A stretch of DNA of 64,000 bases from a virus. How positions within the stretch are numbered: position 1 is the first letter of the stretch; every line of letters starts with the position of its first letter. The position numbers and the translations under genes are program-made. The notes beneath the pieces were generated by a model. It searched no databases and had not been told where the DNA came from. It saw only the letters and a program-made list of their open reading frames with translations. Location of the stretch: positions 29,814 to 93,813 of the IMG/VR virus record IMGVR_UViG_3300023179_000053; one strand, given 5' to 3'. Positions 1 through 31,734 of the stretch are shown in pieces.

Positions 1-71
1 TAGATGGATTACCAGATGTGTATACATCTATATCTGAGGAAGTTGAAATTATAATGTGTTTTTGCTGTGTA

Positions 72-347
72 TTAAATGGCATTTTGCTTCTCCATTCTTT
101 CTTTGATATTTTTAATTACTGTTTTATTGGTTTGCAATTCTGATAAATCCCACCCTAAATCTTCAAGTTTTTGCCATACCAAATCTAACATTTCTGTATC
201 TGTTAGTTCGCCAAGTGGAGTTGTTATTATTTCAGCTATTTCAGTAATAGTTTTACTATACTGACCATGTGTTATTTCAGATTGTCTGTATGGTCTACCA
301 TTGTTATTATTGTTGTAATAGAGACCACCATGTGGATTAAATAACAT
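72..347 (-). CDS. hypothetical protein; C-terminal part resembles ORF 12298..12498
   Basis: ORF with an AGGAGG SD upstream; shares an I..I..I.TTP...LTD.E..D..W motif with 12298..12498. Confidence 0.7.
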   Translation of the reverse strand: MLFNPHGGLYYNNNNNGRPYRQSEITHGQYSKTITEIAEIITTPLGELTDTEMLDLVWQKLEDLGWDLSELQTNKTVIKNIKERMEKQNAI

Positions 348-375
348 ATTGCCTCCTTTTGTTTTTATTACTTAG

Positions 376-449
376 CGTTTCCGATAGGATTTGAACCTAC
401 AACCTACTGATTAGAAGTCAGTTGCTCTATCCAATTGAGCTACGGAAAC
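376..449 (-). tRNA. tRNA-Arg(UCU)
   Basis: Cloverleaf: acceptor GTTTCCG/CGGAAAC, D arm GCTC-AATTGGATA-GAGC, anticodon arm ACTGA-CT TCT AA-TCAGT, T loop TTCAAAT; CCA not encoded. Confidence 0.95.
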
Positions 450-454
450 AATAA

Positions 455-507
455 AAATGCCGGATAGAATAAAGTGTCGCAGCACTTTATTATTCTACCC
501 GGCATTT
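455..507 (-). terminator. long imperfect hairpin followed by a U-rich tract (terminator-like or processing stem)
   Basis: AAATGCCGG..TAGAAT AAAGTG / CACTTT..ATTCTA..CCGGCATTT inverted repeat between ORF 538..1119 and tRNA-Arg. Confidence 0.5.
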
Positions 508-537
508 AGGGGGATTATTTATTATTACCCCTAGTTA

Positions 538-1119
538 TTATTGTTTTATTCTATCAAATAATTGTTCAACCATTTTATTTGTTTTTTCAGCTTGTTGTAA
601 ATGTTGTTTAATTGTAATTTTATTACCTTTTGTAGCAAAAAATATTTTAGATCTGTGTACAAACATTTCACCATTTTTAAAATGCCATTTCCACATTTCA
701 CCTTCTTCTCCACGCCACACTATTTCTGTATCATTTTCAATATATGGAGCAAGAGCACAAAAGAATATATCTTCATTACCTGCTTTATTTGAATAGGATA
801 TGTCTACAAGATTGTTTTTTTCATCAAAAACTGAATCAAAGCCTAATTCATTTAAAATTTCTTTAAGATCTTTTAATTTGTTATGATAATCAGAAGCCAT
901 CCAACTAAACCATCTAGCAGGGTGGTAATCTAACCCATCTGGTCTTTTGTCGCCTTTATTTACTTTATCCTCTCCCCCATAGATTCCGCCATCTTTTAGC
1001 AAATCATATGCTGGATTAGAATTAAGTTCACATAAAGCCTCATATGCTTTTTGCACATTTTTGGCTTTAATAATTGCACCATTAGTTTTAATTGATTGAA
1101 TATCTACGTAGTAGCCCAT
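538..1119 (-). CDS. hypothetical phage protein
   Basis: 193-aa ORF with AAGGA SD; WRGEEGEMWKW motif; no function assignable. Confidence 0.8.
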   Translation of the reverse strand: MGYYVDIQSIKTNGAIIKAKNVQKAYEALCELNSNPAYDLLKDGGIYGGEDKVNKGDKRPDGLDYHPARWFSWMASDYHNKLKDLKEILNELGFDSVFDEKNNLVDISYSNKAGNEDIFFCALAPYIENDTEIVWRGEEGEMWKWHFKNGEMFVHRSKIFFATKGNKITIKQHLQQAEKTNKMVEQLFDRIKQ

Positions 1120-1131
1120 TATCTTCCTTTG

Positions 1132-1353
1132 CTATTTGTTGTATAAAACGCTATCTTGTGGGTATCCACTAGGATACTTTTCATTGAAGTTTTGAATTGC
1201 CAATTCGTAGGCATTATCAAAACCGGGAGTTTCTTCCATTGGTTCATCTATTAATGGAATAAATCCTCTTTCTACTAAGTCAAGAAATGCTGACTCTATA
1301 AATTTATCTTGTACTTGTTCAGGGGCATTTTCCCAATGTGTTTCATCTACCAT
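1132..1353 (-). CDS. hypothetical protein
   Basis: ORF coupled to the upstream gene by a TAATG overlap. Confidence 0.7.
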   Translation of the reverse strand: MVDETHWENAPEQVQDKFIESAFLDLVERGFIPLIDEPMEETPGFDNAYELAIQNFNEKYPSGYPQDSVLYNK

Positions 1354-1652
1354 TATTCTTCTCCTTCTTCATCTGTAAAAGTTCCCCATTTAATTACAAT
1401 GGCATTATCTCCATGACTATCTGCTTCCCAAGGTTTTTCTGTAACTATATAAGCAAGCCTATTGACCCATCTATAGCCACTTTCAATCCACAACTCATTG
1501 CCTTCGGCAATCATAGTCCATACTTTTCTTGGCTCAATAGATTGAATAAATTTTTTCTCCACCCCAAATGTTTCATATGTTTTTACACGATCATCTTCCA
1601 TTTCGGGTGAATATTTATCAATCCAATCATCTGGTAACATTACTTTAACCAT
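1353..1652 (-). CDS. hypothetical protein
   Basis: ORF with SD inside a tightly packed operon. Confidence 0.7.
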   Translation of the reverse strand: MVKVMLPDDWIDKYSPEMEDDRVKTYETFGVEKKFIQSIEPRKVWTMIAEGNELWIESGYRWVNRLAYIVTEKPWEADSHGDNAIVIKWGTFTDEEGEE

Positions 1653-1666
1653 ATTTATCTTTTCCT

Positions 1667-2209
1667 TTACATTGACCAGTGGTCAGCGCCACCATTTTCG
1701 TATAGATACTTTGATACTTTTAGATTACAATCAACATCAAACAGACCATCAATTGATGTACCGCAAATGTTTTTTGTAACTGTTTTCCAAGTAGAATTAA
1801 CTTGTAGAAGCCCCAAGTCTTGTGAACCATCTTTGTTTAATTTAGTGTTGTGAGCTTCCGGATTACATCTACTTTCTCTCCAAGCTATATAAGAAAATAG
1901 CTTTGGTGGAAGACCATACTCAACAAATTTAGATTCCCATTGCGGGCATCTTTCTGTTTCGTCTTTAGGTATTCTCCTTTTAGTTTCTGCCGGCACTTGT
2001 GCCATTGGCAATGTAGATGTAGTTGTAGTTGTCTCTACAGTAGTTGTAGTTTCTACTACAGGAGCATCAACGACAATTACTTGAGCAGATTCTTGCTTTT
2101 CATAATTGTCTTCAACTATTGTTTTTGTAATGACAGCGCCTGTAAAAGCGCCATAAATTAAGCCTATAACTGCTATATAAGGCTGCGATTGTAACATATT
2201 TTCCTCCAA
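1667..2209 (-). CDS. membrane-anchored lytic transglycosylase (SLT/lysozyme-like)
   Basis: N-terminal hydrophobic helix, Thr-rich linker, catalytic RES-x-C-NP-x-A motif and GLLQVN motif. Confidence 0.85.
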   Translation of the reverse strand: MEENMLQSQPYIAVIGLIYGAFTGAVITKTIVEDNYEKQESAQVIVVDAPVVETTTTVETTTTTSTLPMAQVPAETKRRIPKDETERCPQWESKFVEYGLPPKLFSYIAWRESRCNPEAHNTKLNKDGSQDLGLLQVNSTWKTVTKNICGTSIDGLFDVDCNLKVSKYLYENGGADHWSM

Positions 2210-2338
2210 AGTTTAGGGTTTGCGTTATTACGCATTAGCATTTCTAATAGAAGAAACGTTAGTAAATCAACAACTTTACTTACGTTTTCTTAGTTACTAT
2301 TTTATAAATAATCCTCCTTGATATACACTTTTATTTTG

Positions 2339-2415
2339 TGCTGGCGATGGGACTTGAACCCATATGTCACCAGTTAACCTTTCTACACTTTATAAGAGTG
2401 AGGGTATACGCCAGC
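2339..2415 (-). tRNA. atypical tRNA-like RNA lacking a canonical D arm; anticodon-like loop CT-TAT-AA (Ile UAU-like)
   Basis: 7-bp acceptor GCTGGCG/CGCCAGC plus discriminator A, T arm ATGGG-TTCAAGT-CCCAT, hairpin CACT-CTTATAA-AGTG only 8 nt after the acceptor strand. Confidence 0.7.
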
Positions 2416-2422
2416 TTATGAT

Positions 2423-2809
2423 CTAGTCGTTGTCCCCAGATATGTCTTCTTCCATTTCAAGTAGTGCAATAATTTCTTTGTGCATACTTGGTCTATTAGA
2501 CATATTCTCTGCTAACCGTTCACGAACATTTTGATTATAATGTTGCGTATATGTATTTGAAACTTCTTTCATTGTAATATCATTACTTTCAGCAAGCTCT
2601 TTCATAATGATACTCATATGCATCATAAATGCATATATTAATGCCGGCATAAAAAATGGATTGTCTCCGTGTTCATCAGATAGTGACTGAAACAAAGTTT
2701 CTAGTATTACTTTATTTTCTTTTGCTGAATTATCAGATGAGTTGATAAATGTATTAAACATTTGCAACGCAATATCTGTAAACAGGAATTCATCTTTTTG
2801 ATTTGTCAT
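2423..2809 (-). CDS. hypothetical protein
   Basis: 128-aa ORF; weak similarity to 8212..8586. Confidence 0.75.
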   Translation of the reverse strand: MTNQKDEFLFTDIALQMFNTFINSSDNSAKENKVILETLFQSLSDEHGDNPFFMPALIYAFMMHMSIIMKELAESNDITMKEVSNTYTQHYNQNVRERLAENMSNRPSMHKEIIALLEMEEDISGDND

Positions 2810-2811
2810 AA

Positions 2812-3000
2812 TTATTTATACTCACTAAGAACATAATACGTATATATTTCTCGATTAGAGATTAACCATTCTACCATAGTTATCTCATTTTGTCGAGTAA
2901 GATAGTCTAGTACATATTTAAATGAATATATATCTCCTCCTTGTTGTTTGATTCTTTTTGTAATTAATTTCATTTTTGTTGGTATGATATTTTGTTTCAT
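2812..3000 (-). CDS. hypothetical protein (start moved to MKQNII)
   Basis: The ORF-track start at 3075 overlaps tRNA-Leu; the ATG at 3000 lies just past the tRNA. Confidence 0.6.
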   Translation of the reverse strand: MKQNIIPTKMKLITKRIKQQGGDIYSFKYVLDYLTRQNEITMVEWLISNREIYTYYVLSEYK

Positions 3001-3004
3001 ATCG

Positions 3005-3077
3005 TGGGTGTAGTGGGATTCGAACCCACACTTTATTGATTTTAAGTCAACTGCCTCTGCCATTGGGCTACACACCC
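3005..3077 (-). tRNA. tRNA-Leu(UAA), short variable loop
   Basis: Acceptor GGGTGTG/TACACCC, D region TAGCCCAATGGCAGAGGC, anticodon arm GTTGA-CT TAA AA-TCAAT, 5-nt variable loop, T arm GTGGG-TTCGAAT-CCCAC. Confidence 0.92.
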
Positions 3078-3083
3078 AATTAT

Positions 3084-3419
3084 TTATTCGATATCTTCTT
3101 GTTCTAATAAATTTGTCAACTCAATGATATCAGCCGGTGTTTCACCTTTTTGAACAAGATCATTGTGATGAGATATATTCTTTGTTATTTCCCTAACAGA
3201 TACGGAATGTGGATTATAGAAATACTCTTTTACAATTCCGGGCTGTTTCTCACCGACTGAATATTCAAATATTCTGGCATTCCAATTGTCAGGTTTAAAA
3301 CCGTGTAATCTTTCGCAAATTCTATTAGCAATTGATACAGCTTCAATTACAGTAGATGTATCTTCAACTTTGATAGGGAATCTGTATTCTACTATGTAAT
3401 AGTTATCAAATTTAGGCAT
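3084..3419 (-). CDS. hypothetical protein
   Basis: 111-aa ORF with AAGGA SD. Confidence 0.75.
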   Translation of the reverse strand: MPKFDNYYIVEYRFPIKVEDTSTVIEAVSIANRICERLHGFKPDNWNARIFEYSVGEKQPGIVKEYFYNPHSVSVREITKNISHHNDLVQKGETPADIIELTNLLEQEDIE

Positions 3420-3547
3420 TATAATCCTTTACCAGAATACAGAATAAAACCAACTATTGCCATAAGAAATATAAGCCCCCAAGATACCAGAGATGCTGTT
3501 ATTCCCAATACAATTAATGCGGTTAATAAAATTTGCTTTTCTGTCAT
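3419..3547 (-). CDS. small hydrophobic membrane peptide (42 aa, not in ORF track)
   Basis: MTEKQILLTALIVLGITASLVSWGLIFLMAIVGFILYSGKGL; ATGA and TAATG overlaps with both neighbours. Confidence 0.65.
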   Translation of the reverse strand: MTEKQILLTALIVLGITASLVSWGLIFLMAIVGFILYSGKGL

Positions 3548-5205
3548 GAGATTTCTTCTATTTGAATACTATCACCATTTACCGGATTAAGAAATGCGTT
3601 TTTGATTACCATCGAGCTACCATCGTTAGATGTAGACATTATACCTTTCAGATTATTTACAAGCATCGGTGATTTAATCAAGAACTTTTTACTACCAATT
3701 TTTAAGATACAACCTTTAAGAACTTCTGACTTTTCTACTTGAAAGTCTAAGCCTTGTACATAAGGAAGGTCTTTAACTTTTACTTTGATATCCTTACTAC
3801 CAAAATCAATATGTATTAAGTCTTGTTTGTAATGTTCAAACATTAGCTTCCCGATTCTGTTATCAGCAAGATTTCTAAACTCAGTATTACCATCTGTGTA
3901 CCCAGAATCATAATGATCATATTCGTGTATAATAGTAGCAATCAGTGATTCAACACTAGAAGATTTTGCGTGATGTTTATTTATCAGAATCTGTCTTTCT
4001 TGTCTTGGTTTATCTACAAGTATAGTTAGACCAAGCAGGTTTTGACTTTCAGCAGAGAATAACCCTATCTTTCTATGCATTGTTTTCAAACCTTTTTCAA
4101 AGTGCTCTGCTATCTCTAACGCTCTGACAAAGTTGGGGTAGTTTTCGTAATCATACTCAACATCATATTTAAGATCTTCATTTGCAATATCAGAAAGTGT
4201 TCTGACACCGGATTTCTTAAGTATATAGTACAAGTTTGAAGACAGGCAATGAACAGATGAATACCCTAGTTCTTTAACTTTAAGAGCTACATTAGGAACT
4301 GCTGATTCAATAGAATTCAATAACACTGATTTATCACCGTACTTCAAATTAAAACATTCACCCCAGACATCATTAACTCTATTGTATTCAAAAGCAGCTT
4401 CTGAAAAATGCCAGAATTCCATATTGTCATTATCAAGTGGTTCAATACCAATAATCTTGTCTAAGATGGTATTAATTACAGCTTTATTGTCCATATGGCA
4501 TAATGCTCTTGCGATATCATAAGATACTAAATACGGAGATGCCAATTTTCTTTCTTCATTTAACTTAAATGACTTGCCATTGTAATGAAATAAATAGTCT
4601 TCATCACTTTCATATACCAGCACAGATTTACAATAAATAGCGGCGGCATTTGTATTTACTGGCTTTAAAATGTCAACTTTATTTATTGAGCAACTGTAAT
4701 AAACTTCAGCGTTATCACAATAGTAATAATCGTGATTTCTGTACACTTCCATAATTTTATCGGTTGCTTCAATAAATATTGAGAATTCGCCTTCTTTGAA
4801 ATAAACGTCATCTACTAGATCAATTCCCCACAATGACTTATCATTTCTAGCACCATCTTTTGCATTACTTACAACTTCTCGATAAATTTGAAATTCATCT
4901 TCCCAAGATAATGTGCCGGCATCAACTGTAAATGAAGATGGAATTTGCTCATAACCATAATCATAATATACAACATCAATGCCTTGAAGTTTTCTTGCAA
5001 TGTATCTAAGTTGATATGGACCATCTTGGTCATTGCCAACAAATACAAATTCAACACCTTTTCTTAATGCAAGAATTGGTGCGTATTTAATGCCGGAACC
5101 GAATTGACCAATAGTTTCTTCATCATCACGCTTTGTAGATAAACCTAGGTATTGTAAGTTTAGTCTACTAACTTCGTCTGCTTTATTCCATATTCTTAGA
5201 TACAT
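3544..5205 (-). CDS. GHKL (HSP90/HATPase-like) ATPase fused to an HExxH zincin-like domain
   Basis: LGLSTK..IGQFGSGIK ATP-lid motif, REVVSNAKD, C-terminal TIIHEYDH. Confidence 0.7.
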   Translation of the reverse strand: MYLRIWNKADEVSRLNLQYLGLSTKRDDEETIGQFGSGIKYAPILALRKGVEFVFVGNDQDGPYQLRYIARKLQGIDVVYYDYGYEQIPSSFTVDAGTLSWEDEFQIYREVVSNAKDGARNDKSLWGIDLVDDVYFKEGEFSIFIEATDKIMEVYRNHDYYYCDNAEVYYSCSINKVDILKPVNTNAAAIYCKSVLVYESDEDYLFHYNGKSFKLNEERKLASPYLVSYDIARALCHMDNKAVINTILDKIIGIEPLDNDNMEFWHFSEAAFEYNRVNDVWGECFNLKYGDKSVLLNSIESAVPNVALKVKELGYSSVHCLSSNLYYILKKSGVRTLSDIANEDLKYDVEYDYENYPNFVRALEIAEHFEKGLKTMHRKIGLFSAESQNLLGLTILVDKPRQERQILINKHHAKSSSVESLIATIIHEYDHYDSGYTDGNTEFRNLADNRIGKLMFEHYKQDLIHIDFGSKDIKVKVKDLPYVQGLDFQVEKSEVLKGCILKIGSKKFLIKSPMLVNNLKGIMSTSNDGSSMVIKNAFLNPVNGDSIQIEEIS

Positions 5206-7867: not shown

Positions 7868-8209
7868 TTAAAACAATTTCTCTTTTGCTTTTTTGTATCT
7901 AATCATATGCATTGTTTGATTTACAATTTTGCTACTGATTGAAGTATAATCATCAAGATTAAACATTCTTCTTAAAGAGCCTCTTTCTCTTGATGTAAAA
8001 CCACCCCATACTCCAAATTTAATATTTTCATTTAAAGCATAAGCTAAACATTGCTCAGCAACGGGGCATTCTTTACAGTAAGATTTGGCTTTTTCAGTCT
8101 GTTTTTTTAGATTTCTATTATCTTCATCAGACTCAAAATAAAATGTATTTATTGATATACCTTTACAAGCAGCTCTATCTCTCCAGATTTCTTTGATTGG
8201 ACTAAACAC
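7868..8209 (-). CDS. whiB: WhiB-family Fe-S transcription factor
   Basis: W...AAC, CxxCPV..xC and GVWGG motifs. Confidence 0.93.
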   Translation of the reverse strand: MFSPIKEIWRDRAACKGISINTFYFESDEDNRNLKKQTEKAKSYCKECPVAEQCLAYALNENIKFGVWGGFTSRERGSLRRMFNLDDYTSISSKIVNQTMHMIRYKKAKEKLF

Positions 8210-27688: not shown

Positions 27689-30600
27689 TATACCTCAACC
27701 ATATTTTTTATTTGTTTTCTAACGATGTAATCCTCGATAGTAATTAGTTTATCAGCAGAATCGAGCTTGAAAGAGTCAAGTCGATTAAGAGTTTCCTTAT
27801 CTTCAATCTTTGATAGTCGTGCAGCATACCATTCACCCTCTTTAAGCAGCGCCTTTACCTTCTTATACACTGCCGCAAATATCACTACCTTAAAGAATTG
27901 CTTCCCATCCCAGCAATAAACACTCGCCATCTCTTTGCCTGTTGATGTTTTAAAACTTCTAATATTGAATACATACATCATTGTCTTTGGATCATTGATG
28001 AAACCTATATCGTGCTTATAGACCCAAGAATATTTGTGGTCAGTACCGGATTTCTTCATCATCATGATATTATAAAGCTTTGAGTCTTGCGCCTGATAAA
28101 CATCACAGTATGCGTGAAGCGTTCTATCACCAATCAACGCATAAACATAATCACGCTGTGCTAGCTCGGTATTTCTTTCACCAAAAACGGTACAAGAGCC
28201 GGAGTGATCTTCAAACTCAACCCGCAAATAATTCTGCGCCTTCTTTGTAGACCTAACTACGGCTTTAATCAGCGTTAAATTAGAGGCGGTCTCATGAAAA
28301 TCTGCAGCATTTTCTACAAATTCATCAATATCTGTCTTAAATTCACTAGCCTTAATAGGGAATCCAAGAATTGGCAAGTAGTATCTAGGGTGATCGAACT
28401 GAGATACGTGCCCAATTGACTCAAATGCACCGACCTTATCCAAATTTTCTCTCAGCGGAGCCTTAACTGCACTCTTGGAGCACTTATTATTAAACTCCTC
28501 AAACGAATTGAATGGTCTCTTTGCGAATATTTCGTTTATTGCACTTACACCACAGCCGGTAACATTGGTAAGACCAAATCTAATGCCTTCTTCTTCATCA
28601 GGAAGAGACATTGAAAAGAATTCTTGTGACTTATTGATATCCGGTGGATAAATTTTAAGACCTAGCCGCTGCGCTTCCATCAAATACGCTGTAATTTTGT
28701 CAGTTGCAGACTCATTGTATAATAACGCCCACATAAATTCAAGTGGATAGTTAACCTTCAACCACATTGTTTGATAGGACATTAAAGAATAAGCAACAGC
28801 GTGGGATTTATTAAACATATACAACGCTGAAAGCTCAAATTCAGACCAAATCTTATCCGATTGCGCCTTTGTTAAATATTTATTGTTAACAAACTTGTCT
28901 TTGAACTTATCAAACTCAGCAACATCACGCTTCTTACCAATGATCTTACGCAAAGAGTCTGCTTCAGACCATGTAAAGTCAGCCAGCAGCACCGCCATTT
29001 GCATCAATTGCTCTTGGAAAATAACTGTGCCATAGGTTTCTTCTAAAATCGATTTCACAACCTCGTGGGCATACTTTGGATTTGTTTCACCCTTCTTGCA
29101 GTCAATATATCTCTGCCCTTGGGATAGCAAAGCGCCGGGTCTAACCAGAGCGTTTGACACAACAAGGTCGTTAAAGTTATCAATACCCATACGCTCAATC
29201 AAATTACGATAGGCGGCAGCATCTGTTTGGAAAATACCCACCGTATTGATGTTATTAAAGTTCTCATACACCTTTTGGTCGTCTAGGGCTAGGGAGAGCG
29301 CTTCCACATCCCTTCCATAACGCTTCCTAATCATTTCTAAAGCGTCTTTAATGACAGATACGGTCTTGAGACCCAAAACGTCTATTTTTATAAGCCCAAC
29401 GGCTTCTGCGTCTTCCATCGCAAAGGCTGTAACGGCACTTCTTTCCCCACCCTGTGAGTCTTTTCTGGATTCCACCGGACACACTTCGGTCAATGGAACC
29501 GCCGATACCACCATTCCTGCAGCATGGACACCTGCTGTGCGTACACGCTCTTGTAGGCGCTCTGCAAGCGCGGGAACATCGGGATATTTGCGAACAAATA
29601 TCTTGCCTTTCTCCGTGCTCTTTAGTTCATCAATGGTTTCAAAATATGGGGTGATATTATTGATCTCGGCATACGGAACCTGTAGAATTCTGGCAACATC
29701 TTTCACCGCACTCTTTGGTTTAAATGTGCCATAAATGGAAATCGCCGCTACCTTGTCTTCTCCCCAGCGTGTGGCAAGATAATTTTTGACTTCATCTCTG
29801 CGTTTATCTTCAAAGTCAAGGTCAATGTCTGGATAGTCGTTTCTTTCGGGGTTGATAAATCGTGAAAACAAAAGCTTATATTGAAGCGGGTCAACCTTTG
29901 TAATATCCAACAGATACGCCAGCAAACTTCCGCCAACCGAGCCTCGCCCTGTGCCTCGCCCAATGCCGTTGTTATCCGCCCATTTTACCAAGTCCCATAC
30001 AATCAAGAAATAATCCGCAAAGCCGAGCTGTTTAATAATTGCCAATTCTTCTTCAAGCCGAGCCATATATTCATCCCCAAGATTTAATTCCTTGAGCCGG
30101 AATTCCGCCATCTCTTTTAGATAATCATCGGAGTTGAGCGACTTCATATACTTGGGCAAAAGATTCTTCCTTTTCTCCAGCTTTGCCGTACACTTCTGCG
30201 CTACTTCAACGGTATTCTCCAGAATATCTGCTCTGTCATAACCGGCATCTTTAAACCACGATGCCACTTCTGCTGCATCTGCCAAGTACGGATTGATTTC
30301 ATCAAAGCGTAAAGACCTGTTAGGATACATATTATTGATTTTCGCCACCATATCAAGACTGGGGTTGTGTAAACAGTCGGCATGGTCTTTGGCATGTCTT
30401 TGGTCTGCTGCCCCAAGGCTTGGGTATTGAGAAATCATAAGAAGTATTTCTTCACACCCCTTATCCTTTCTTGAAGGGAAATGACAGTCTGCTGTTGCCA
30501 CCACCTTGCGCCCATAAGTTTGGGCAAGGCTTATTAGACCATCATTTAGCTCTTTTGGATTCCAAGCCTGTATTTCATAATAGAAGTCATCTTTAAATAT

Positions 30601-31662: not shown

Positions 31663-31734
31663 CTGGGGAGGATGGGTTTGCACCACCATCTTCTAATTAT
31701 TGGTCAATTAGCGCTTTGCTTAAGCTACTCCCCA
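31663..31734 (-). tRNA. degenerate tRNA-like gene (identity unclear; loop-central triplet CCA)
   Basis: Acceptor TGGGGAG/CTCCCCA, D arm GCTT-AAGCA-AAGC, stem CTAATT-GACCAAT-AATTAG, T arm GGTGG-TGCAAAC-CCATC; lacks U33, D-loop GG and TTC. Confidence 0.6.

Follow-up and report, generated by a model that had tools for sequence, protein, structure and literature searches.

Can an RNA that departs from the cloverleaf still be a working transfer RNA (tRNA)? The question is raised by a gene on the minus strand, at positions 2339 to 2415, of the 64,000-nucleotide (nt) stretch analysed here (the window; positions 29,814 to 93,813 of IMG/VR virus record IMGVR_UViG_3300023179_000053). An initial annotation had described it as a tRNA-like gene lacking the D arm, with a UAU loop and a displaced segment resembling a D loop, and had proposed either a non-canonical decoder of the isoleucine codon AUA or a tRNA mimic. 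Comparison with its relatives supports, with considerable confidence, a functional tRNA-Ile(UAU) for AUA with an internally permuted core; genes of this layout are called rewired below.

With RNA position p defined as window position 2416-p, the parts that had been named initially (acceptor stem, U8-A9, hairpin, 22-nt segment and T arm) were all confirmed on the minus strand (Table 1). The acceptor stem is a perfect helix of 7 bp (GCUGGCG/CGCCAGC) with discriminator A; no CCA is encoded, CAA coming directly after the discriminator. The anticodon hairpin CACU-CUUAUAA-AGUG (RNA 16-30) begins 8 nt past the acceptor strand and has U33, A37 and A38 in its loop, as in Ile tRNAs, and the 22-nt segment UAGAAAGGUUAACUGGUGACAU stands between this hairpin and the T arm. 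From A9 to the anticodon stem there are only 6 nt, which leaves no D hairpin of the cloverleaf kind. ARAGORN made no call for window 2339-2415, and the Rfam tRNA model (RF00005) gave the window copy 34.3 bits against a gathering score of 29, in an alignment that deleted the D arm and inserted 18 nt in the variable region before the T arm. A permissive Rfam scan of 2250-2500 returned this tRNA match and a weak Plastid-ycf2 match on the opposite strand.

By blastn, distant matches covering 68 nt (89.7% identical) turned up in 77 phages of Streptomyces with about 49% G+C. The copies so found are unannotated with one exception, gene 108 of phage EGole (L007:2995-3071), a rewired tRNA-Ile(GAU) recorded as tRNA-Leu(UUA). 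A three-way alignment had compensatory changes in the acceptor and T stems and a nearly invariant core, and the 26-nt core has exact matches in 32 IMG/VR contigs. Pattern scans of IMG/VR gave 32, 74 and at least 118 loci; pooled, they amount to at least 153 copies and at least 108 distinct sequences, on contigs of 29-66% G+C. The main alignment has 106 distinct members, and the counts of anticodons, identity marks and context given below refer to 108 unique IMG/VR copies among the matches listed. Because the search patterns fix G7-U10, C12-U15 and AGAAAGG, invariance in those columns is imposed. D-stem pairing and the core tertiary residues A14, R15:Y48, G18 G19 and A21 are present, though in permuted order. 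A covariance model built from the phage homologs (model R1) scores the window copy at 95.8 bits (E 4e-30) over its full length, and the canonical tRNAs of the window at 23-30 bits.

The D stem that had been thought missing exists: its strands, RNA 10-13 and 37-40, lie on either side of the anticodon hairpin. All 106 members have a Watson-Crick pair at 11:39 (C:G in 72, A:U in 29, U:A in 3 and G:C in 2), and together with C12:G38 and C13:G37, both fixed by the patterns, this pair makes a stem that encloses the anticodon hairpin. Variants of the two fixed pairs were found with the covariance model, A12:U38 in L071:9511-9585 and G13:C37 in the Arg-UCG copy of Streptomyces phage Mildred21. RNAalifold, given no structure as input, predicts the same enclosing pairs (11-13:37-39). 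In the remaining helices, 99.1% of the acceptor-stem cells and 98.1% of the T-stem cells are paired, with double changes in four of the five T-stem pairs; the four Watson-Crick pairs of the anticodon stem are paired in about 100% of cells and have 8, 35, 56 and 73 double changes. A putative Levitt pair R15:Y48 (alignment columns 43:54), made up of the nucleotide next to A41 and the one just ahead of the T stem, also covaries: it is A:U in 55 members, G:C in 42, wobble in 2 and unpaired in 7, and purine:pyrimidine in 99 of 106. The covariation score of the structure so named is 0.733, compared with 0.18 after shuffling and at most 0.15 with the partners slid. Residues A41, G46, C50, A51 and U40 are invariant and G45 and U47 nearly so, and no pattern required them. 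At positions 14-15 there are two candidate registers, either C14:G33 and U15:A32 with base 31 bulged or a stack of the 26.44/27.43 type; the main set is pattern-fixed there, and two members, L195 (C15:G31) and L123 (U15:A31), favour the canonical-like register.

The same segment has been read in another way, as part of a tRNA truly without a D arm, in which G38-A41 would pair with U47-C50 and the 22 nt would form a displaced D arm or a long variable arm of their own. This hairpin, noted initially as GUU-AACUGGU-GAC, can form in the window sequence and belongs to its minimum-free-energy fold (-22.1 kcal/mol), but it is not conserved in the family. Of the 106 members, 82 lack pair 39:51 and 58 lack pair 40:50; pairing over the whole helix is 63.5% and compensatory changes are all but absent, whereas the competing 11:39 pair is kept throughout in four pair types. 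A D-armless molecule with a local hairpin is accordingly very unlikely.

Nor does the family look like debris. That the gene is a tRNA pseudogene in decay, or resembles a tRNA by chance, is scarcely credible, even though the silence of ARAGORN and the low Rfam score would suit either reading and a partial copy at another locus has indeed decayed. Compensatory changes occur in every stem among the more than 150 copies from phages of 29-66% G+C; the window copy fits the family model over its full length; and, among the homologs, no random decay of a normal D arm was found, so that the initial view of the arm order as rearranged rather than decayed survives the comparison. Contigs of natural relatives from four runs in three studies differ from the window on both flanks of the gene (2295, 2298, 2302, 2416, 2432 and 2436), with no listed difference in 2303-2415. 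This within-gene conservation among wild relatives would be weak evidence of purifying selection, only the best-supported differences being listed. The partial copy lies at L052:5166-5223 (+), between two intact rewired tRNAs, and also at L054:691-748 (-); it spans model positions 8-69 (42.4 bits), has G38 changed to A and no acceptor stem, and is probably a decayed duplicate.

How the parts of the rewired tRNA relate to those of a cloverleaf can be read by mapping them to canonical numbering. RNA 10-13 correspond to 22-25, C14 to 26, RNA 15-31 to 27-43, AGAAA to 44-47 and RNA 37-40 to 10-13; A41, R42 ... G45 G46 U47 ... A51 correspond to A14, R15 ... G18 G19 U20 ... A21, and U52 to Y48. The order along the RNA is acceptor 5' strand, U8 A9, D strand (22-25), 26, anticodon arm, AGAAA, D strand (10-13), D loop, A21, Y48, T arm and acceptor 3' strand. 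By this mapping, the canonical segment 10-21, which comprises the 5' D-stem strand and the D loop, is relocated from its place between 9 and 22 to one between 47 and 48. In effect the internal domain 10-47 is circularly permuted and the acceptor/T minihelix stays as it was; had 10-47 been duplicated in tandem and the outer pieces then been lost, exactly this order would have resulted.

Undoing the permutation restores recognition by a standard tRNA finder. With short neutral flanks, ARAGORN called 0 of 106 members in native order and 106 of 106, the window copy included, after alignment columns 37-53 were moved between A9 and U10; 105 of these calls had the expected anticodon, and 74 members of the un-permuted set were typed as tRNA-Ile(tat). 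Shifting the 5' boundary by -3, -5, +3 and +5 nt lowered the number of calls to 2, 0, 22 and 28, respectively; the 3' cut falls in loop sequence and tolerates shifts. In their native contigs, 4 of the 108 copies are called by ARAGORN, and some relatives fall below the Rfam threshold, such as the Arg-ACG copy of Mildred21 (25.2 bits). The residues at the new junctions (9 to 22, 47 to 10 and 21 to 48) are neighbours in the core of canonical tRNA. Because all three junctions join residues that are adjacent there, the rewired RNA would be expected to adopt the usual L shape.

That one segment move yields a perfect cloverleaf might also suggest a permuted gene of which the transcript is cut and re-ligated into canonical form, as in Cyanidioschyzon merolae, and an RNA ligase is encoded by some carrier phages. 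However, the acceptor ends are already in normal order, and two cuts and two ligations in the core would be required. No bulge-helix-bulge motif is evident, bacteria to our knowledge have no splicing endonuclease, and no ligase lies near the gene in most carriers, including the first 9 kb of the window. The covariation, moreover, matches the unprocessed order, and re-ligation is extremely unlikely.

The anticodons of the family bear on what a rewired tRNA with unprocessed order would do. Among the 108 unique copies they are UAU (76), GAU (24), ACG (5) and UCU (3), with GCG and UCG found in further copies; the anticodons seen on this scaffold are those of Ile (UAU, GAU) and Arg (ACG, GCG, UCG, UCU) only. 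Isoleucyl-tRNA synthetase (IleRS) of the Escherichia coli type depends on the anticodon N-A-U, A37, A38 and A73, and A20 is the major determinant for arginyl-tRNA synthetase (ArgRS) in E. coli. Ile-type copies have discriminator A in 98 of 100 and U after GG in 96 of 100. Arg-type copies have A after GG in 8 of 8, as does every further Arg copy seen, and the discriminator is G in 6 of 8 and A in 2 of 8. The window copy carries the whole tRNA-Ile identity set (UAU, A37, A38 and A73). Identity marks that switch with the anticodon support the displaced segment acting as a true D loop, and its early description as D-loop-like holds good for the family, in which conserved elbow nucleotides track the anticodon.

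The genomic surroundings are those of tRNA genes. A canonical tRNA is present at 95 of the 108 loci, with a median gap of 66 nt, and the strand is the same for 688 of 693 neighbouring tRNAs; none of the 76 loci with a rewired UAU gene also has a canonical UAU gene. A natural swap is seen within one phage genus, between EGole and its relative Mildred21. EGole has canonical Arg genes in three slots (tct after Gly-gcc, tcg after Lys-ttt and acg after Thr-ggt), and the same three slots of Mildred21 hold rewired Arg-UCU (39.3 bits to model R1), Arg-UCG (70.7 bits) and Arg-ACG (67.9 bits). The flanks of the third slot (Arg-ACG) are 82-84% identical between the two phages, and ARAGORN typed none of the other tRNA matches of Mildred21 as Arg. 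Together with the identity marks and the tRNA arrays, these syntenic swaps make a non-canonical Ile(AUA) decoder the best reading of the window gene, as the initial annotation had proposed among its two options. In all, Mildred21 (MF155946.1; L219, L220) has four unannotated rewired tRNAs, Ile-GAU at 73703-73779, Arg-UCU at 86379-86453, Arg-UCG at 91367-91442 and Arg-ACG at 94857-94933, of which Arg-UCU has a far more divergent core.

Codon use in the source phage points the same way. In 49 minus-strand open reading frames (ORFs), AUA occurs at 27.6 per 1000 codons and makes up 36% of Ile codons, while 64% of Arg codons are AGA and 52% of Thr codons are ACA. The other tRNAs of the record (Arg-UCU, Thr-UGU, Asn-GUU and one with anticodon UAA) read AGA, ACA, AAY and UUA, which are also heavily used, and a UAU tRNA fits this set. 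An elongator tRNA-Ile(UAU) would let the phage read its frequent AUA codons, and the rewired tRNA would be served by the processing enzymes, CCA-adding enzyme, IleRS, EF-Tu and ribosome of the host. Clustering of ORFs over about 100 loci found no recurring specific partner protein near the rewired gene, the commonest neighbours being HNH-like endonucleases, ThyX, deoxynucleoside monophosphate (dNMP) kinase and WhiB; the rewired RNA presumably relies, for want of such a partner, on host enzymes.

The second option offered initially, a tRNA mimic or decoy acting outside translation, would retain the shape of a tRNA and an Ile anticodon loop in order to titrate an anticodon nuclease of the host, a synthetase or some other protein that binds tRNA, or would function as a ligand in regulation. 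An unusual core would be more tolerable in a decoy than on the ribosome, and the inner 45 nt are much more conserved across the family than the acceptor and T stems, as might be expected of a surface recognized by protein. Some Streptomyces phages, besides, have their copy beside a nucleotidyltransferase of the RlaP family and encode a Ro-like protein and an RNA ligase. A decoy, however, would have no need to switch A20 and discriminator with the anticodon, to stand precisely where related phages have a canonical tRNA of matching anticodon, or to keep all elbow and Levitt-type contacts and a 7-bp acceptor stem, and no partner protein recurs in the roughly 100 loci. Identity switching, tRNA arrays and the replacement of canonical genes in syntenic slots thus make a mimic unlikely.

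Several observations weigh against a functional tRNA-Ile(UAU) with a permuted core. Nearly all members have a mismatch, U.U or U.C, at the position equivalent to 27:43. Nearest-neighbour energies of the window sequence by itself are -22.1 kcal/mol for the rival hairpin fold and -21.5 kcal/mol for the rewired fold; the choice between them is settled by the comparative data and not by this 0.6 kcal/mol gap. Divergent members are under-sampled by gathering patterns that fix so many columns, and the association of A20 with the discriminator could derive in part from shared ancestry of the Arg-type copies. EGole holds a canonical Ile-GAU besides its rewired Ile-GAU, a redundancy by which the rewired class is not always needed as a gap filler. 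The three-dimensional fold is a prediction from sequence logic, and transcription, processing, CCA addition, isoleucine charging and ribosomal use of the RNA are likewise putative. Among the sequencing runs found to contain this DNA, none was of RNA.

A scan of 185,579 prokaryotic genomes, one per species, gave 45 pattern loci, of which about 18 are true members, all on contigs of metagenome-assembled genomes (MAGs) assigned to Bacteroidota, Actinomycetota, Planctomycetota, Firmicutes, Desulfobacterota and others; the matches in archaeal MAGs and in many other genomes were rejected as chance. Since the prokaryotic copies are so few and all on MAG contigs, the class is essentially viral and spans many host phyla. 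The layout is common to hundreds of phages. Cultured carriers include Streptomyces phages of the genus Samistivirus and Coruscant, the Microbacterium phages Magritte, A3Wally and Zooman, and a Rhodococcus phage; the uncultured crAss-like phage record cr130_1 is also a carrier, and the rewired copies in all of these are unannotated. In Coruscant (MT711976.1) the copy at 73029-73091 lies beneath the annotation of an FtsK-like coding sequence. Probably, phages of numerous bacterial phyla possess, besides the cloverleaf, another architecture for working elongator tRNAs: an internal D/anticodon permutation that keeps L shape and synthetase identity, can fully replace canonical tRNA-Arg and tRNA-Ile and may persist through escape from a host or phage factor reading the canonical D-arm region. 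That the wiring was selected as an escape from a nuclease or modification enzyme reading this region is a guess.

Several known systems resemble the rewired class in part. Permuted tRNA genes of C. merolae are permutations of the whole molecule, and processing restores a canonical mature tRNA; Pan, Gutell and Uhlenbeck reportedly made a synthetic circularly permuted yeast tRNA-Phe in 1991, from which the tRNA fold is said to tolerate altered connectivity. Both have in common with the rewired class tRNA segments in non-standard order. In the rewired class the permutation is confined to the internal domain 10-47 and the ends are those of a normal tRNA, so that the mature RNA should retain the altered order. 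The bacterial Y RNA YrlA has a tRNA-like module with acceptor- and T-arm-like elements. Modules of this type likewise are phage-borne RNA with such elements, and some carriers of rewired tRNAs encode a Ro-like protein; the rewired RNA, in contrast, is free-standing, with a true anticodon loop, a discriminator and no Ro-binding stem, and no match of Y RNA type was found in the permissive Rfam scan of 2250-2500.

With canonical class I tRNA-Ile, including the rare UAU form (for example EGole gene 111), the rewired tRNA shares the 7-bp acceptor stem, A73, the UUCRANY T loop, the CU-UAU-AA anticodon loop, a length of 77 nt, location in tRNA arrays and residues of the A14, R15, G18 G19, A21 and Y48 types, but its D stem encloses the anticodon hairpin and its D loop also links to the T stem. 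D-armless mitochondrial tRNAs (nematode mitochondrial tRNAs and mitochondrial tRNA-Ser(AGY)) are likewise natural tRNAs used in decoding whose departure from the cloverleaf lies in the D arm; they have lost the D-arm nucleotides, have a short replacement loop and use dedicated mitochondrial machinery (PMC7609411), whereas the rewired class keeps all D-arm nucleotides, a paired D stem, G18 G19 and normal length, and so falls outside that group. Selenocysteine tRNA (tRNA-Sec), allo-tRNA and pyrrolysine tRNA (tRNA-Pyl) are non-canonical natural tRNAs that also came from the mining of genomes and metagenomes; they alter stem lengths (8/4, 9/3) or loop sizes and keep cloverleaf connectivity (PMC5389517, PMC7609411), whereas the rewired class has canonical stem lengths and altered connectivity. 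No description of this layout was found in the literature, including a 2020 review of non-canonical tRNAs (PMC7609411), subscription journals being thinly covered, so that its absence is unproven.

Cloverleaf connectivity is regarded as universal outside mitochondria, and a widespread reordered class would, if true, break that rule. The ribosome, EF-Tu, RNase P and class I synthetases would then accept another core topology, and tRNA finders would have a systematic blind spot, which dozens of isolate phages with the rewired gene unannotated would exemplify; phage tRNA repertoires and analyses of codon supply would therefore be incomplete. The class would also be a natural scaffold for orthogonal or engineered tRNAs in synthetic biology. 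It raises the testable question of what selects the wiring, and why for Ile and Arg only.

Table 1. Parts of the rewired tRNA gene in window coordinates.
Feature	Window position	Strand	Remarks
Rewired tRNA-Ile(UAU), whole gene	2339..2415	(-)	77 nt
Acceptor stem, 5' strand, RNA 1-7 GCUGGCG	2409..2415	(-)	Partner RNA 70-76; double changes in 6 of 7 pairs in 106 relatives
U8 A9 connector	2407..2408	(-)	Read from letters; fixed by search patterns, so family invariance is uninformative
D-stem strand equivalent to canonical 22-25, RNA 10-13 UACC	2403..2406	(-)	Continuous with anticodon stem
C14 (equivalent to position 26) and anticodon arm, RNA 15-31	2385..2402	(-)	Stem 16-19:27-30, U15.U31 mismatch, loop CUUAUAA
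Anticodon UAU, RNA 22-24, reads AUA	2392..2394	(-)	
AGAAA linker, RNA 32-36, replaces variable-loop 44-47	2380..2384	(-)	Pattern-fixed; variants UGAAA, CGAAA and UUUA known
D-stem strand equivalent to canonical 10-13, RNA 37-40 GGUU	2376..2379	(-)	Partner of RNA 10-13
D-loop-like segment AACUGGUGACA, RNA 41-51	2365..2375	(-)	Proposed matches A14, A15, G18 G19 (RNA 45-46), U20 (RNA 47), A21 (RNA 51)
U52 (equivalent to Y48), putative Levitt partner of A42 (equivalent to R15)	2364	(-)	Covariation, alignment columns 43:54
T arm AUGGG-UUCAAGU-CCCAU, RNA 53-69	2347..2363	(-)	5-bp stem, 7-nt UUCRANY loop
Acceptor 3' strand, RNA 70-76, and discriminator A77	2339..2346	(-)	

Read along the tRNA strand, an imperfect inverted repeat of about 14 bp (GAAACGUUAGUAAA ... 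UUUACUUACGUUUUC, plus strand) follows the gene some 50 nt downstream, at window 2250-2291; it could be a terminator or a processing hairpin. A consensus scan of window 1-4000 for promoters and terminators did not flag it and gave nothing above shuffles. AGAAAGG was considered as the Shine-Dalgarno sequence of a mini-ORF and rejected, the ATG 14 nt downstream being missing in most relatives. PHROG and Pfam searches linked neither flanking ORF to tRNA: an SLT lysozyme-like domain was found in the downstream ORF (1667-2209), and the upstream one (2423-2809) matched no family in either database. In Streptomyces phages of cluster BE, the gene just upstream of the rewired Ile-GAU (L007:3085-3606 (-)) matches the RNA-repair nucleotidyltransferase RlaP (PF10127, E 8e-6). 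Such genomes (EGole, L215, genes 128 and 197) also carry genes for a Ro-like protein, an RNA ligase and a transfer-messenger RNA; no RlaP-type neighbour is present in the window.

The source is a virus record of 93.8 kb and 33-35% G+C from lake water, with genes almost entirely on the minus strand, and relatives occur in several freshwater runs. A gene for a WhiB-family transcription factor is present at window 7868-8209 (-) (Pfam E 1.7e-21), and WhiB genes are near rewired tRNAs in nine other phage loci. The WhiB gene and the lake-water source suggest a phage of freshwater Actinobacteria, despite the 33% G+C.

Two further tRNA-like features of the window are unusual. One, at 31663-31734 (-), is detected by Rfam (42.1 bits) and not by ARAGORN. 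Its acceptor, D and T stems are good, but the anticodon-type loop has 9 nt (UGACCAAUA), the D loop lacks GG and the T loop, UGCAAAC, is odd; this may be a further tRNA of non-standard form or a pseudogene. Bacterial tRNA-Leu usually has a long variable arm. The tRNA with anticodon UAA (Leu, UUA) at 3005-3077 (-) has only 73 nt and a short variable loop (Rfam 66.1 bits). This stretch draws very many other contigs in freshwater metagenomes, with a summed depth of up to about 2450, and near-identical tRNAs are therefore abundant in such metagenomes.

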